Sequence record: PZ049694.1
Source: a phage
Strand: one strand, 5' to 3'
DNA: 64,000 nt
The translations under genes were made by a program, and so were the position numbers. Positions 126 through 18,354 of this stretch are shown one piece after another. The notes below the pieces were generated by a model. That model searched no databases and was not told where the DNA came from. It saw only the letters and a list, made by a program, of their open reading frames with translations. Positions within the stretch are counted from its first letter, which is position 1, and the number at the start of each line of letters is the position of its first letter.

Positions 126-595
126 TTTAAACTCTTTCTAAGCTGCTTTTTGAATGAAGCTATTAATTGTGTTTTAGTATCAGATTCATTATATTCAAAT
201 CCTCTTTGAAGCATCTCAGCCATCATTTCCTCTTTACCTAGTCTTGAGAACTCTTTAGTTTTGTCTGGAACAAAATTAGGATGGATATTATTATCAGAAT
301 AATCTTGTTTCAAATAAGCAAGAAGAGCTTCAAGCCATTCGAGGTAGTCGACATCACGTCCTTTAAGACCGGAACGGTTGAACTTATGCTTCATTTGACC
401 TTCTGCTGCGTTGCACAGATTACAGAGTAATCCACGAACTCTACCGGCTTTTGGCCCGTTTAATTCATGGTCGTGGTCAAGATGGTTACCTTGAACATCA
501 GGGTCTAATTCACGGTGGCAAATAGGACACTTACCATTCTGTGCATCATAAAATTTTTGTTTTTCTTCTTTATATTTTGCGCCTGATAATAACAT
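122..595 (-). CDS. 49: recombination endonuclease VII (junction-resolving enzyme)
   Basis: 157 aa; matches recalled T4 gp49 along its length (GKC.IC.REL.PDVQ.NHLDHDHELNGPKAG.VRGLLCNLCNAAEG, C-terminal KKQLRKSLK). Confidence 0.9.
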   Translation of the reverse strand: MLLSGAKYKEEKQKFYDAQNGKCPICHRELDPDVQGNHLDHDHELNGPKAGRVRGLLCNLCNAAEGQMKHKFNRSGLKGRDVDYLEWLEALLAYLKQDYSDNNIHPNFVPDKTKEFSRLGKEEMMAEMLQRGFEYNESDTKTQLIASFKKQLRKSLK

Positions 596-624
596 GATAA
601 ACCCTTACCTTAAATAGATAAGGG

Positions 625-632
625 TATTTATA
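625..632 (-). promoter_or_regulatory. T4-type late promoter TATAAATA upstream of gene 49
   Basis: minus-strand TATAAATA about 30 nt upstream of the gene 49 ATG. Confidence 0.45.
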
Positions 633-634
633 AT

Positions 635-814
635 TTAATAAATGTTATAAAAGTCACGATGGAAACGTTTGTATTGGCGAATCATTCTTTTAGTAGGACG
701 TGTTACCGAAATGATTGAAGTCCTCATGTTCGGATTGTTTGGAGCACCAATTATAACAAATTTCCAAGATTTTTGACCGTTTGTTCTTTCGCCAAAAAAT
801 AATGCAGTTTTCAT
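635..814 (-). CDS. small basic protein, 59 aa (not in ORF track)
   Basis: ATG 814..812, TAA 637..635; MKTALFFGERTNGQKSWKFVIIGAPNNPNMRTSIISVTRPTKRMIRQYKRFHRDFYNIY; paralogous C-terminus with ORF 1239..1409. Confidence 0.45.
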   Translation of the reverse strand: MKTALFFGERTNGQKSWKFVIIGAPNNPNMRTSIISVTRPTKRMIRQYKRFHRDFYNIY

Positions 815-13722: not shown

Positions 13723-14032
13723 CTAGACGGTCCACCATAGAATTGCATGCTGCCTTATCTTTAGGTTCCGCCACCGAGCATTCTAATATTTGCCATTTTT
13801 TATAGTATCTTTTAATTAAGGTAGACGCCTTGAACCTACTAGACGCCCCATCTTTTTCTCCGTCTTTATACGCATATAACAATTTTTGTGAAAAATCTAC
13901 TTTACACTCTTGACTTTGACCACAATAATCAGATGCCGTTCTGTTTGTATACTCCGTTACATCAGTATATGTAGTATTAGCAAGAGCGTTAAATGAAACC
14001 AAGCCAACTATTAAAGCCAACATTTTGGTCAT
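13685..14032 (-). CDS. secreted Cys-containing protein with signal peptide, 115 aa
   Basis: MTKMLALIVGLVSFNALA signal peptide; four Cys. Confidence 0.55.
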   Translation of the reverse strand: MTKMLALIVGLVSFNALANTTYTDVTEYTNRTASDYCGQSQECKVDFSQKLLYAYKDGEKDGASSRFKASTLIKRYYKKWQILECSVAEPKDKAACNSMVDRLVDSYTRGLAASD

Positions 14033-14571
14033 TCTTTTATTTCCAGTAGTTTGTTTGATTTAAGGTAATTAGCCTTTTCTAGGACTTCAGAAGCATATTT
14101 ACTTCCAGCACTCGTCTTCCATCCCGCATTATATGAGGATATAGCTTTTCTTATATCCCCGTTATGTATATTTAACCAATAAGAAAATTCGATATAAGCC
14201 CATCTGGCTGAATTAGACCGCTTAGATAGCATTTTCTTAATTTGGGCATCAGACATATTATAACCAAGCCGGTTAATTCTTGCCCTCATTGTTGGTAGAT
14301 AATTTTGGAACATTCCATACGCATGGTGACCTTTCTTATCTTTAAGATTAATACCGGCAGATGATTCCTGCCATAGTATTGCGGCCATTATGTATCCAAG
14401 TCCTTTCTTATGCATATTTTCATGCGTTTTAAATTTTCCATCCTTAGAAAACTGTTCCCCAAACTGATAAGCATAATTCAAGTTATCGAGTTGGACATTA
14501 CTAAAAGTATGCTCGGAGCTATGTGCTGATAACGAAAGAGCAAATAGACCAGCGAGTAGTGCTTTTCTCAT
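14029..14571 (-). CDS. periplasmic lytic transglycosylase (SLT domain) with signal peptide
   Basis: signal peptide; SLT motifs QESSAG (catalytic Glu-Ser), GMFQ, SYNAGW. Confidence 0.65.
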   Translation of the reverse strand: MRKALLAGLFALSLSAHSSEHTFSNVQLDNLNYAYQFGEQFSKDGKFKTHENMHKKGLGYIMAAILWQESSAGINLKDKKGHHAYGMFQNYLPTMRARINRLGYNMSDAQIKKMLSKRSNSARWAYIEFSYWLNIHNGDIRKAISSYNAGWKTSAGSKYASEVLEKANYLKSNKLLEIKE

Positions 14572-14579
14572 GTTTACCT

Positions 14580-15038
14580 CTAGATTTTAATCACTGCTTT
14601 AGAAGCTTTTCCTGGTAGTCGTTTACTGTTAATAATAGCCATTCTGCATTGAAGAGTCTTCATTTTGAATGCTGGATTTTCGCGACAAACTGTAAGTCCT
14701 AGCCAAAGATTTCCATCAGTTATTTCTAAACGGCCTGGACGATATTCGACACCTTCGACAAAATCTTCATCAACATCTGGACGTGCCGGCATTGATAAAA
14801 ATTCTGCAACTTCTTTAACATGATTTTTTACTTTACGAAATAATTCAAAAACGTAGTTCTCATCTATTTCTCTCTGGATAGCACGATCTAAGAGATGTTG
14901 AGAATACTTGATATGAAAGCCTGGTAGTCCAAGAGACTTTGCAGCATCTTTTATACCGGCATTTATTTTGCGGAACTCCGTTTCAAAGATTCGACGGAGT
15001 TTATTACGGCGGATAAAAACGTCAGAATTGATAGTCAT
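14580..15038 (-). CDS. regB: RegB site-specific endoribonuclease
   Basis: 152 aa; MTIN..VFIRRNKLRR.FE.EFR.IN...KYSQHLLDRAIQREIDE.YVFELF...RLPGKASKAVIK matches recalled T4 RegB. Confidence 0.88.
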   Translation of the reverse strand: MTINSDVFIRRNKLRRIFETEFRKINAGIKDAAKSLGLPGFHIKYSQHLLDRAIQREIDENYVFELFRKVKNHVKEVAEFLSMPARPDVDEDFVEGVEYRPGRLEITDGNLWLGLTVCRENPAFKMKTLQCRMAIINSKRLPGKASKAVIKI

Positions 15039-15046
15039 TTTTGATT

Positions 15047-15096
15047 TCTCCTCTAGTTGACAGGTCTATAGTAACACAACTAGAGGAGAAGTAAAC
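15047..15096 (-). promoter_or_regulatory. PeSL-like early promoter with 13-bp stem pairing the regB Shine-Dalgarno
   Basis: GTTTAC, 17 nt, TACTAT; arms tctcctctagttg / caactagaggaga; the 3' arm holds the regB GAGGAG. Confidence 0.55.
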
Positions 15097-15437
15097 TACT
15101 CTTTGAAAGGAATTAACTTTTTAACTGCTTTAGATACTTCGTCACGAACCTGGTGGAAGTTCTTGAGCTGTTCAAGGCGTTGTTCGTAATACGCAATCTC
15201 ATCTTCTTCAAGACAATCGTCAGCGTCTTCTTTCAGATATGCCTTGTACTCATTAAAGAGGGCCCATAGGCGATTCTCAAAGTCATCAAGGCTTTGAATT
15301 TTCTTGTGCTTCGGAACAAGGCCAAAAGGATTGCTTTCAGTTATGCGTCGAGATGCTTCATAATGAGTTCCAAAGCCTGATAGGATTTGAGCCATTAGTA
15401 TTTTTCCTCTGGTCGAAATACCGCACGGCATGCCCAC
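15096..15437 (-). CDS. hypothetical protein, about 100-113 aa
   Basis: ORF; start uncertain (possibly MAQILSGF). Confidence 0.5.
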
Positions 15438-15661
15438 ATGCTGGCTTCTTTTAGATGTTGCTTAGCATACTTAAGAGCCTGCACTGCATCCATATCTTCT
15501 TTGGTTTGTTGCTCTGATTCATTTTCTTTCAAGATATATGCTTCTTCAATCAGAGCATCAAACATCAATCCAAGACGGACTTCTGCGTCTTTAATAGCGT
15601 TCACTTTACTGATTTTATCATCGGTATGTGGCTTGTAGCCTTTGATGTCTTCAATCGACAT
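15395..15661 (-). CDS. hypothetical protein, about 88 aa (start MSIEDIKGY)
   Basis: internal ATG with GAGGA Shine-Dalgarno; upstream part of track ORF overlaps the preceding gene. Confidence 0.4.
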
Positions 15662-15875
15662 AAGGAATTTCCTCATCGGTGGCAAGGTCATATTCAACCA
15701 ATTGGATAGGCTCATTAATACCATATCCGCGTACAGTGATATCAGTTGTCGGATATTTTCCAGTAATATCACCCGTTCTAAATGCTTCAATGAATGATTG
15801 CTCGCCTGAGCAACTAAACCAGGCGGCAAAACATTTTAAAACATCTTCGGACCCTTCTATAATCAATTTAGCCAT
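15651..15875 (-). CDS. hypothetical acidic protein, 74 aa
   Basis: ORF; start overlaps the GrcA-like stop. Confidence 0.5.
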   Translation of the reverse strand: MAKLIIEGSEDVLKCFAAWFSCSGEQSFIEAFRTGDITGKYPTTDITVRGYGINEPIQLVEYDLATDEEIPYVD

Positions 15876-16237
15876 TATAGACTCTCAGTAAAGGTGCGAG
15901 CGATAACGTCGCGCTGCTGTTCCGGAGTCAGAGAGTTAAAGCGAACTGCATAACCAGATACACGGATGGTCAGCTGCGGATATTTTTCAGGATGCTTAAC
16001 TGCATCTTCCAGAGTTTCACGACGCAGAACGTTAACGTTCAGGTGTTGACCACCTTCAATTTTAACTTTAGGTTGTTGTTCAATTTCAATTTCACGAGCA
16101 TTCAAACCGTAGAAAATTTCCGGGTCTACAATATCGTCTTCTTTAAAAGTCTTAGAGACAATAATCCGGGCTTGAATACCGTCTTCAAAATAAATAGTGC
16201 CTTTATGTGCACCTTCAAGAATTTGATATGCTTTCAT
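15875..16237 (-). CDS. grcA: GrcA-like autonomous glycyl-radical cofactor (PFL C-terminal domain homolog)
   Basis: 120 aa; glycyl-radical signature RVSGYAVRF; C-terminal half matches recalled E. coli GrcA/YfiD ([45 protein letters not shown]). Confidence 0.8.
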
Positions 16238-16243
16238 ATAACC

Positions 16244-16552
16244 TCAATTAGAAAATAAATTTATCCAAGATTTTTCTTTAATCAAAAATGGGTCGGAATT
16301 AAACGCCATTAAACTTTGAGTAATTAATCCCTTAAATGGTCCATCAATAAATTCCATTTTGAAATGCGGAATACTAGTCATCAACCGTGCATTAGGAGCA
16401 GTACAAAGAACCTGCTGACCTGCGAATGGACCTTTAGTCAAACGATATCGTTTAGGTTTAAAATGGTAAATCTCGTAATTTTCTACAAGAGCCCTTTTAT
16501 TGCATACTGGACTGTTATAACAATACTCAAAAACTTCAATAGTGGTCATCAT
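16244..16552 (-). CDS. hypothetical Cys-containing protein, 102 aa (start MMTTIEVF)
   Basis: ATGATG start overlaps the upstream TGA (ATGA coupling). Confidence 0.5.
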   Translation of the reverse strand: MMTTIEVFEYCYNSPVCNKRALVENYEIYHFKPKRYRLTKGPFAGQQVLCTAPNARLMTSIPHFKMEFIDGPFKGLITQSLMAFNSDPFLIKEKSWINLFSN

Positions 16553-17088
16553 TGCATTCCAATCACAAAAAATTGAGGACGAGCAGTACCGCCTATGCAA
16601 TATTTGCTTTTGCAGCAGTGCTGTACTGATTTAATATGGACATTGTAAATCTTATCCATATCAGGAGCTTTAATAGGCTCGTCAATTATGTATAGAATAC
16701 GAGAAAGCGTTAATCCACGGAATTTAGAACCTTCATTGCCAATAAAACTACGGACAGAATCAGTAAATAAACGGAATCGAATATCATCGCTAGAATAACG
16801 AGAAAATTCTTTTTTAATATTGCCAACAGAAATTTTAGCATAAGCTGAAGTATTAGAAAGAACAATAACTGTTCCACCGTCGTACAGCCAATTAACAGCA
16901 AAATTAGTTACTGCAGTCGATTTACCTGATTGTCTGCCGCCGTCTAAACGAAGTGTACAGTACTGCTTGAGTACGTCTTCAAATGGCGGGATATAACCAT
17001 TCTTACAAATTTCTTCTACTCTAGCATCAGAATGGTGTGTAAAAGCATTCATCAGGGATAGATAAGGCCCAGTTAAAAATGTTCTCAT
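16549..17088 (-). CDS. small P-loop NTPase, 179 aa (start trimmed to ATG MRTF)
   Basis: Walker A GGRQSGKST, Walker B-like LYIIDEP; track ORF begins at GTG inside a non-coding spacer. Confidence 0.55.
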   Translation of the reverse strand: MRTFLTGPYLSLMNAFTHHSDARVEEICKNGYIPPFEDVLKQYCTLRLDGGRQSGKSTAVTNFAVNWLYDGGTVIVLSNTSAYAKISVGNIKKEFSRYSSDDIRFRLFTDSVRSFIGNEGSKFRGLTLSRILYIIDEPIKAPDMDKIYNVHIKSVQHCCKSKYCIGGTARPQFFVIGMQ

Positions 17089-17260
17089 TTTATTCTCTCT
17101 AGGTTGGGGCCATTCCGTGGCACATGTTAGGTCCTTCGACTCGCTATGTAAACCCATTACCGCACTTGGGCTCGACCTTATTACAGGTTGGAAAAGGTAC
17201 ATCACTCAGAGGACTCGACGTTCATAAGGAGAGGTTGCGTTTCCCTTTATTAGGCAAGAA

Positions 17261-17590
17261 TTATACTCTAGGCTTTTGAGCTTGTTTGGTATTGGATTCC
17301 CATGCGGCTTTGGTAATTTTGTTAGCGGCATAACCAAAGGCACTAGATAGAACACCTTTAGAGTTGAATACATCCAATCCAATAAGTACACTTGCTGTGT
17401 TAAATTTAGGAGCAAAGTACGCATTAGTTTTAGAAAGAGCTTTTTTCAATTCAGGGTCTTGAACCAAGCCATCAAAAACGCCTTTACCATTTACTTTATA
17501 TGTTACTTTGGGATTTTTAGCTTCTTCGATAGCAGCTTTCTGTTCCGCAGATAATGTAACTTCAGTAATAAATTCTTGATATGTTTTCAT
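17261..17590 (-). CDS. internal-protein-like (ipII/ipIII family) with capsid-targeting leader
   Basis: N-terminus MKTYQEFITE, a T4-type 10-aa capsid targeting sequence ending in the gp21 protease site I-x-E. Confidence 0.6.
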   Translation of the reverse strand: MKTYQEFITEVTLSAEQKAAIEEAKNPKVTYKVNGKGVFDGLVQDPELKKALSKTNAYFAPKFNTASVLIGLDVFNSKGVLSSAFGYAANKITKAAWESNTKQAQKPRV

Positions 17591-17681
17591 TTTTGTTTCC
17601 TTGTTTGTTTTGATAGAGTAATTATACCATATTAATACTTAAGCGTAAACTGTTTAAGCTTTACCATCGCAACCTTTTTCC

Positions 17682-18095
17682 TTAGTAAATTGATTTACCA
17701 TAGTATTTGTACCAAGTAGGACGTTGAGCAATTTTTTCATCTAAACGAGCTTGACTTATCGCAATGGACGCTTCGGTCGGGACATAATTATTACGAAATT
17801 CGGCAGGGATGTCGGAAATATCTTGGACAGTCGTGTCCTTGATTTTGAAACCACGTTTCAAGCATTCAGCGATTAGCTCGATTTGACGTAAACGTAAAAA
17901 TTCGAGTTTGTCGTAAAAGAATGTTACGTGACCTGTGCCTAAGATAAATGCTGGAGAGATTTTAAAATCCTTTACACGTTTACCGTTTTGAACATGTTTA
18001 CGGACTGCACCAAATACGCGTGGTAATTCACGATACTCAGCCATAAGATGTTGGTCGGTCAGTTCAGAAACAAGTGTTAAATTGATACGAGTCAT
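17682..18095 (-). CDS. denV: endonuclease V (pyrimidine-dimer DNA glycosylase)
   Basis: [77 protein letters not shown] matches recalled T4 DenV; start trimmed to ATG. Confidence 0.92.
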
Positions 18096-18100
18096 AATTT

Positions 18101-18153
18101 CCTCCAAGTAGTTGATGAATGTATAGTATCAAAGTCCTTGGAGGAAGTAAACA
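18101..18153 (-). promoter_or_regulatory. PeSL-like early promoter whose hairpin pairs the denV Shine-Dalgarno
   Basis: GTTTAC, 18 nt, TACTAT; arms cctccaag / cttggagg; the arm downstream of the -10 contains the denV GGAGG. Confidence 0.5.
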
Positions 18154-18354
18154 CTATTTTTCTGAAGCGCCTGAAATATATTTTTCAAGACGTTGTTTCA
18201 TCAGCGAACCGTTCTTGGCGATTTCTTCCGGTTTATCGCACATACGCAACAAGGCTTCAAGCTTAACGATATCACTGGTGCGTTCAAATTTGCGAGTATC
18301 TATCTTACTAGCAAGTTCAGAAATACGTGCTAATAGACTTTCGGCTTCAACCAA
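18154..18354 (-). CDS. doubtful small ORF, 66 aa, TTG start
   Basis: open frame between e and denV with no in-frame ATG near its start. Confidence 0.25.
   Translation of the reverse strand: MVEAESLLARISELASKIDTRKFERTSDIVKLEALLRMCDKPEEIAKNGSLMKQRLEKYISGASEK

Follow-up and report, generated by a model that had tools for sequence, protein, structure and literature searches.

The 64,000-nucleotide (nt) stretch of phage DNA analysed here (sequence record PZ049694.1; hereafter the window) carries on its minus strand, at 15875..16237, an open reading frame (ORF) with an ATG start, 120 codons and a TAA stop, exactly where an earlier reading of this DNA (the original prediction) had placed a GrcA-like glycyl-radical protein. 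Gene order and similarity identify this ORF as the vs.6 gene of a T4-like (Tevenvirinae) coliphage and as the positional orthologue of T4 vs.6. The genes denV ... vs.8, vs.7, vs.6, vs.5, vs.4, regB and vs.1 lie in this order on one strand, as they do in RB69 and T4, which bears out the T4-like setting that had been assumed; the place of vs.6 between vs.7 and vs.5 on the same strand is also found in phages F2 and JQD51. About 16 kb around vs.6 share 98.4% identity with Escherichia phage vB_EcoM_JQD51 (Tevenvirinae), the gene itself is 97.2% identical in DNA to RB69 vs.6 and 99.7% to the F2 gene, and homologous DNA was detected in 1,556 phage records, T5-like phages included. The protein is 94% identical to T4 Vs.6 (Y06I) and is a full-length member of phrog_1209 (E=1.5e-62, residues 1-120 on profile positions 1-121 of 121), and the RefSeq label of the T4 and F2 proteins already reads GrcA. 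Since the gene is T4 vs.6/Y06I, the finding as such is not new: gene and biochemical role are already known, are textbook-level for T4 specialists, and the identification amounts to a correct recognition of vs.6/Y06I. Our analysis centres on the composition of the gene, which appears to join an old phage-lineage half (codons 1-60, 16058..16237, minus strand) to a tract recently overwritten from the grcA gene of the host (codons 61-117, 15887..16057, minus strand).

Profile and structure searches agreed with the predicted assignment of Vs.6 as a GrcA/YfiD-type glycyl-radical spare part of pyruvate formate-lyase (PFL). Pfam PF01228 (Gly_radical) matched residues 60-101 (E=2.2e-18; 67 bits, the cut-off being 22), and no further domain was found in the 120 residues. 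NCBIfam TIGR04365 (GrcA) aligned residues 20-120 with profile positions 25-126 (E=2.1e-46), and a PDB search returned E. coli GrcA/YfiD (6owr, E=7.8e-43) and the PFL enzyme PflB (E=1.7e-26); the similarity to GrcA and PFL, whose lack had been named beforehand as fatal to the assignment, is thus highly significant. The glycyl radical signature RVSGYAVRF was present as predicted, at residues 92-100 (15938..15964, minus strand) in the translation and in the alignment to 6owr and PflB (1h16), although not at the end of the protein, as 20 more residues follow it. This glycine loop is invariant in 11 of 11 aligned phage and host proteins. The predicted radical site, Gly95 (codon at 15953..15955, minus strand), aligns with G102 of YfiD and G734 of PflB.

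To describe the composition of the gene, vs.6 was aligned codon by codon with E. coli grcA, and a mismatch map and Nei-Gojobori synonymous distances (dS) were derived. Residues 61-120 are identical to GrcA residues 68-127 at all 60 positions and 54 of the 60 codons are the same, so that the match of the C-terminal half to E. coli GrcA named in the original prediction had even been understated there. Within residues 1-59, 20 of 58 aligned residues are identical to GrcA (34%) and DNA identity is 49%; BLASTP aligned residues 22-60 with GrcA 28-67 at 35% identity (E=1e-6), and the C-terminal half is indeed the more host-like of the two, with 100% against 35%. At conserved residues, the same codon is used at 10 of 20 positions in the N-terminal half and at 54 of 60 in the C-terminal half (Fisher p=0.0004). 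The boundary between codons 60 and 61 is sharp, with about 50% mismatch on its 5' side and 3 mismatches in 171 nt on its 3' side, and it is common to the five coliphages compared closely (T4, RB69, F2, EC.W14-2 and the phage of the window).

The 171-nt tract 3' of this boundary corresponds to E. coli grcA codons 68-124 and encodes the glycyl radical domain. It differs from E. coli grcA at three positions in the window, all synonymous, at two in RB69, at one in T4 and at none in EC.W14-2; expressed as identity to E. coli, the window has 98.2%, RB69 98.8% and T4 99.4%, while the next genus reaches about 91-92%. The tract is 98% identical to grcA and 79% to pflB; therefore the donor would be grcA and not pflB. 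The base composition also changes along the gene: GC content at third codon positions rises from 22% in the 5' half to 39% in the 3' half, and overall GC content is 48% in codons 60-120 (183 nt, with the tract inside) against 38% in the whole window. Codons 1-60, in contrast, stand at the noise level of about 47-49% nt identity with each of 81 host grcA genes, and are kept among T4-like genera at 57-97%. Nucleotide comparison, BLASTP and structure prediction together characterize these codons as an old phage-lineage form of the GrcA N-terminal half, with synonymous sites near saturation relative to the host. The designation "host-derived" thus applies to codons 61-117 and fails for codons 1-60.

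When the whole window was compared with 5,426 complete E. coli genomes, the sole match lay at 15867-16060, where grcA and, less strongly, its paralogue pflB were matched; the rest of the 64 kb was without a match in any of these genomes. The tract is present in all 5,426 at 97.7-98.2% identity to the window. We considered that the three tract differences of the window might be E. coli alleles and rejected this, as none of the 5,426 genomes is fewer than three mismatches away.

Near-identity over 171 nt might reflect mere conservation. If a whole grcA had been captured once, purifying selection could have frozen its C-terminal half while the N-terminal half diverged fast, and the original prediction had likewise proposed acquisition followed by N-terminal divergence. 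The homology to GrcA is nearly full-length (residues 20-120 in TIGR04365, and the BLASTP match in the N-terminal half), as such a history would require, and the C-terminal half of the protein is invariant across phages and hosts, which speaks for very strong constraint. However, synonymous sites stay free under selection on the protein, and for this reason the near-identity of the tract does not result from such selection; the codon usage at conserved residues (54 of 60 against 10 of 20) conflicts with it directly. For a measure of host divergence we aligned nine phage copies with grcA of 80 species of Enterobacterales and Pasteurellales, chosen as best matches to E. coli GrcA; this set was without K. 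pneumoniae, and for the K. pneumoniae complex and Cronobacter, grcA DNA was obtained separately via homologous proteins. Among hosts, the median identity of the 171-nt tract is 83%, values of at least 95% occur solely within a genus, and enterobacterial genera diverge by 7-29%; E. coli and Citrobacter grcA are 92.8% identical over codons 61-120.

The synonymous distances divide the gene in the same way. In comparison with T4, the 5' half has a dS of 0.42 for the window and 0.39 for RB69, whereas the tract has 0.073 and 0.024, respectively. Relative to E. coli, dS of the tract is 0 for T4 and 0.073 for the window, whereas E. coli and Citrobacter, the nearest other genus, differ by 0.63 in the 5' half and 0.38 in the tract. 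Over the 43 synonymous sites of the tract, a dS of 0.42 would predict about 18 synonymous differences between the window and T4, where 3 were seen. Moreover, the same N-terminal half is common to phage genera whose tracts are of differing host types. The synonymous sites of the two halves thus differ in age, and acquisition with subsequent N-terminal divergence does not describe this gene. A single capture is in effect refuted by this heterogeneity of synonymous sites, and we regard it as improbable on the alignments at hand.

The tracts of phages of Klebsiella offer a further comparison. Klebsiella phage OU509536 has a tract with 94.7% identity to a Klebsiella allele and 87% to E. coli, and coliphage tracts are 84-87% identical to Klebsiella grcA. 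There are 23 mismatches between coliphage and Klebsiella-phage tracts, as many as between E. coli and Klebsiella grcA (22-24). A search with the E. coli tract found 377 phage records at 99% or more and 266 at 95-99%; the matches listed bear the names of Escherichia, Shigella or some other hosts, and the Klebsiella phages among them stand at 86-89%. The Klebsiella tract found 110 phage records at 95% or more, all of them, among the matches listed, Klebsiella-named phages, one of which had been isolated on Raoultella, with coliphages at 85-88%. The 5' halves of coliphage and Klebsiella-phage genes share 72-73% nt identity and are related to no host, and the boundary …AAAATT|GAAGG… is common to both groups. 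The representative of the Klebsiella GrcA cluster used here reads SLTSEQQ where SLTPEQQ is otherwise invariant, and one of its nine mismatches to the Klebsiella phage tract stems from this.

Taken together, the tract comparisons indicate that host DNA has replaced this phage tract recently and independently at least twice, in the Escherichia and in the Klebsiella lineages. Transfer from host to phage is the direction to be preferred because the host gene diverges similarly in both halves between genera, and because the tract has a host-like base composition. EC.W14-2, a record of 116 kb whose tract is 100% E. coli-type, was considered as a third, T5-like event and rejected, as it is an incomplete Tequatrovirus.

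Structure predictions were compared for both halves. AlphaFold placed strands and a short helix in the same order in the N-terminal halves of phage Vs.6 and E. coli GrcA, giving a small beta domain in both (residues 1-50 and 1-60, respectively) with a predicted local distance difference test (pLDDT) score of about 85-91. The idea of a folded phage N-terminal half as opposed to a disordered host one was rejected since the same domain is predicted for both. In nuclear magnetic resonance spectroscopy, residues 1-60 show disorder when the YfiD protein is free, with which the AlphaFold models of both proteins disagree; the N-terminal beta domain may fold upon binding cleaved PFL only. Foldseek returned nothing significant for this domain, with KOW/SH3-like matches at E>0.1. 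The C-terminal half of window Vs.6 was modelled with moderate pLDDT (43-80). It matched 6owr (E=6.5e-6) and other glycyl radical domains at about 1 Å root-mean-square deviation over 41-45 residues, and its predicted fold is that of PflB 693-759, consisting of a strand, the radical loop and the C-terminal helix.

In YfiD, residues 1-60 are dispensable for catalysis, but without them binding to cleaved PFL is not measurable and activation is incomplete; the structured C-terminal domain (residues 61-127) substitutes the lost C-terminus of PflB. According to PMC8683613, which cites work by Knappe and co-workers (Wagner et al. 2001, BBRC 285:456), both YfiD and T4 Y06I are spare parts that receive a radical from the PFL-activating enzyme (PFL-AE) and restore PFL cleaved by oxygen, and these two are described there as the only validated spare-part proteins. 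The same source has Y06I activated by E. coli PFL-AE, which agrees with the dependence on the host activating enzyme expected in the original prediction.

For window Vs.6 we propose a mechanism modelled on Y06I, on the basis of 94% identity, including Gly95 as radical site and host PflA as activase. Oxygen destroys the Gly734 radical of PflB and cuts the chain at Gly734, and phage Vs.6 would bind the cleaved PflB. The host radical-S-adenosylmethionine activase PflA would then place a glycyl radical on Gly95 of Vs.6, whose C-terminal domain would fill in for the lost C-terminus of PflB, and conversion of pyruvate to acetyl-CoA and formate would be restored. As T4-type phages shut off host gene expression, no new host GrcA would be made and the phage copy could stand in, so that infected cells in the microaerobic gut would keep their supply of acetyl-CoA and of energy from fermentation. 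Codons 61-117 would have been overwritten by homologous recombination with chromosomal grcA, independently in the Escherichia and Klebsiella lineages, so that the radical domain would stay identical to the spare part of the current host.

We give a probability of roughly 85% to the reading that vs.6 encodes a GrcA/YfiD-type PFL spare part composed of an old phage N-terminal half and a tract recently overwritten from host grcA. From the pattern of substitutions, the radical domain has probably undergone recent host-to-phage gene conversion, and recurrence of this conversion is probable. For the further-reaching view that vs.6 and grcA are in ongoing concerted evolution, in which the phage recombination machinery repeatedly re-copies the tract from grcA of the current host while the N-terminal half is protected, we see the balance tilting slightly in favour.

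Several observations weigh against these views. The tracts of KP15, GAP161, Pet-CM3-4, Cognac and the T5-like DT57C are old, with 73-85% identity to any host; since they match no particular host, conversion is not universal. Tequatroviruses isolated on Hafnia, Citrobacter and Yersinia bear the E. coli-type tract, and the tract would for this reason mirror the main host of the phage lineage and not each isolation host. The low divergence among coliphage tracts would also fit one conversion followed by spread from phage to phage, so that "recurrent" is not strictly proven. With respect to function, the role of window Vs.6 is carried over from its T4 orthologue, and the divergent phage N-terminal half could alter target or kinetics, given the importance of this half of YfiD for binding and activation. 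All testable characteristics of the GrcA family (IPR011140, TIGR04365) were found except a score above the equivalog cut-off of TIGR04365: window Vs.6 reached 157.3 of the 170 bits because its N-terminal half is divergent, profile positions 25-126 all being aligned. Window Vs.6 is thus a divergent, phage-type member of the GrcA family rather than a strict equivalog. Finally, the searchable literature yielded no in vivo phenotype for vs.6.

This last point, together with an N-terminal half that is 35% identical to the binding and activation part of YfiD and devoid of the host NSFWLL segment, would suit a decoy or hijacker, a protein that competes with GrcA or PflB for PflA or sits on PFL so as to redirect or damp fermentation. 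However, the predicted N-terminal architecture is the same in the phage and host proteins, and T4 Y06I is reported in PMC8683613 to restore cleaved PFL in vitro. A decoy function of Vs.6 therefore seems very unlikely to us, and the spare-part reading is retained.

The phage encodes a second glycyl-radical protein, the anaerobic ribonucleotide reductase NrdD, whose N-terminus (MTIEKEIEGLIHKTNKDLLNENANKDSRVFPTQRDLMAGIV...; minus strand, window 1..~126) lies some 15.7 kb away from vs.6, and which adjoins an ORF resembling gp49 endonuclease VII (~130-700, minus strand). NrdD is likewise cleaved by oxygen at its glycyl radical, and Vs.6 might serve as a spare part for this enzyme of the phage itself. 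Yet the radical domain shares 100% of its amino acids with GrcA and 79% of its nucleotides with pflB, and structure and sequence searches gave PFL-class enzymes only, with NrdD not among the matches. The activase of NrdD, NrdG, is presumably phage-encoded beyond the left edge of the window, whereas vs.6 would rely on host PflA. Furthermore, Y06I was shown to work with PFL and PFL-AE (PMC8683613). We judge a role in NrdD repair to be highly improbable. That the tract, as the sole E. coli-like DNA in the window and with host-like GC content, should be host contamination or a chimeric assembly is hardly conceivable, and is excluded because the tract occurs at 95% identity or more in over 640 phage genomes sequenced independently; its junction is in frame within a conserved gene, the five closely compared coliphages have one and the same 5' boundary, and the window tract has three private differences from each of the 5,426 E. 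coli genomes. The preferred reading of vs.6 thus remains that of a phage-type GrcA with a host-derived radical domain.

Within its minus-strand, early-type gene block vs.6 is tightly packed. On its 5' side lies the vs.7 homologue (16244..16552, minus strand; 102 amino acids, function unknown), assigned by synteny with RB69 and JQD51 and by PHROG 2049 (9.5e-49), while a Pfam search with it gave no match. Its TGA stop (16244..16246, minus strand), 6 nt 5' of vs.6, overlaps the Shine-Dalgarno-like GAGG read directly from the minus strand at 16242..16245 (AATTGAGGTTATATG), 4 nt 5' of the vs.6 ATG. On the 3' side, vs.6 overlaps by 1 nt (TAATG) with the vs.5 homologue (15651..15875, minus strand; 74 amino acids, function unknown), which was assigned from the ORF list, by synteny with RB69 and by PHROG 1986 (8e-39). 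In the JQD51 record (PV204681.1), product names seem displaced by one coding sequence (CDS) in this region: the 225-nt vs.5 CDS is labelled "Glycyl radical protein" and the 363-nt vs.6 CDS "hypothetical protein", and the label "Thymidine kinase" stands on a 213-nt CDS adjoining a 582-nt CDS of tk size.

The last three codons and the stop of vs.6, GAG AGT CTA TAA (15875..15886, minus strand), lie outside the tract in the mismatch map against E. coli. These final codons are phage-specific synonymous choices common to several phage genera, and the end sequence GAGAGTCTATAA is identical in RB69, KP15 and GAP161. From this position, the phage-type end codons may serve the ribosome-binding site of vs.5 and translational coupling. 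The megablast match to E. coli extends 8 nt beyond the vs.6 stop (15867..15874, inside the vs.5 start) with a 1-nt gap, the DNA reading TAAGGCT in E. coli and TAATGGCT in the phage; this extension may be a remnant of a host segment that once reached past the gene end, or chance. A promoter scan of 14000-18300 gave 12 promoter-like sites where 13 were expected by chance. TTTACG-17-TATAAT on the minus strand (17649..17621) may at most be regarded as a candidate early promoter.

Two further neighbours gave informative matches. The vs.4 homologue (15395..15661, minus strand), two genes 3' of vs.6, matched the Pfam family Acb2_Tad1_hairpin (E=8.2e-18), a family of phage sponges for cyclic-nucleotide immune signals that includes Acb2, directed against the cyclic-oligonucleotide-based antiphage signalling system (CBASS). 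The vs.8 homologue (16549..17088, minus strand) matched Pfam Terminase_6N below the cut-off (E=0.009) and PHROG 2 (E=1e-6); this weak similarity to the N-terminal ATPase of the T4-type terminase large subunit suggests a P-loop NTPase-like fold.

In the searchable literature, whose coverage is partial and in which key older papers are not contained, we found no paper on a sharply bounded, host-genus-specific mosaic of this kind, and the host-genus specificity of the tract is possibly an unreported detail. As an example from nature of homologous recombination between a host chromosome and a strictly lytic phage, the tract is unusually clear. If conversion is recurrent, this exchange would be frequent enough to homogenise a gene segment, marker transfer from a tagged grcA to vs.6 would provide a simple experimental system, and the tract would mark the recent host genus of a T4-like phage. 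If concerted evolution holds, vs.6 would be a natural and datable record of the recent host genus of a phage lineage, and the radical domain would continue to fit the PflA of the local host. What a PFL repair part carried by a phage does in vivo furthermore bears on how lytic phages maintain fermentation in a gut with fluctuating oxygen.

Among known systems, T4 Vs.6 is the closest counterpart. It has the same length (120 amino acids), place, 1-nt overlap with vs.5 and boundary between a phage 5' half and an E. coli-type tract, and differs from the window protein by seven amino acids, six in the N-terminal half and one in the tract (T4 R73H). The T4 tract is without a synonymous difference from E. 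coli, the window tract has three, and the gene content around window vs.6 is RB69/JQD51-like rather than T4-like. With E. coli GrcA, window Vs.6 shares the stand-alone glycyl-radical domain, the RVSGYAVRF loop and an identical C-terminal helix; its N-terminal half is 7 residues shorter and lacks NSFWLL, with the 35% identity over residues 22-60 given above. Host grcA adjoins ung/eamB under host regulation, whereas vs.6 sits in a phage early-type block. The C-terminal domain of PflB (1h16), the part that the spare part replaces, has the same fold and motif and aligns at PflB 659-759, but PflB is an enzyme of 759 amino acids and Vs.6 a protein of 120.

The GrcA-like genes of other phages (DT57C/Demerecviridae, Krischvirus, Slopekvirus, Pseudotevenvirus and Karamvirus) encode small proteins that bear the same glycyl radical domain, but their radical-domain DNA is old, with the 73-85% identity to any host grcA mentioned above, and their N-terminal halves are unrelated or very distant in DNA (38-49% nt identity in DT57C and Cognac). 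A further parallel, and the closest one for the mosaic tract, may be drawn with psbA of cyanophages, a metabolic gene that phage and host have in common and whose segments have reportedly been swapped by intragenic homologous recombination, yielding mosaic genes. There, gene, host and phage group are all different, and the exchange in vs.6 takes the form of one sharply bounded 171-nt tract with up to 100% identity to the host.

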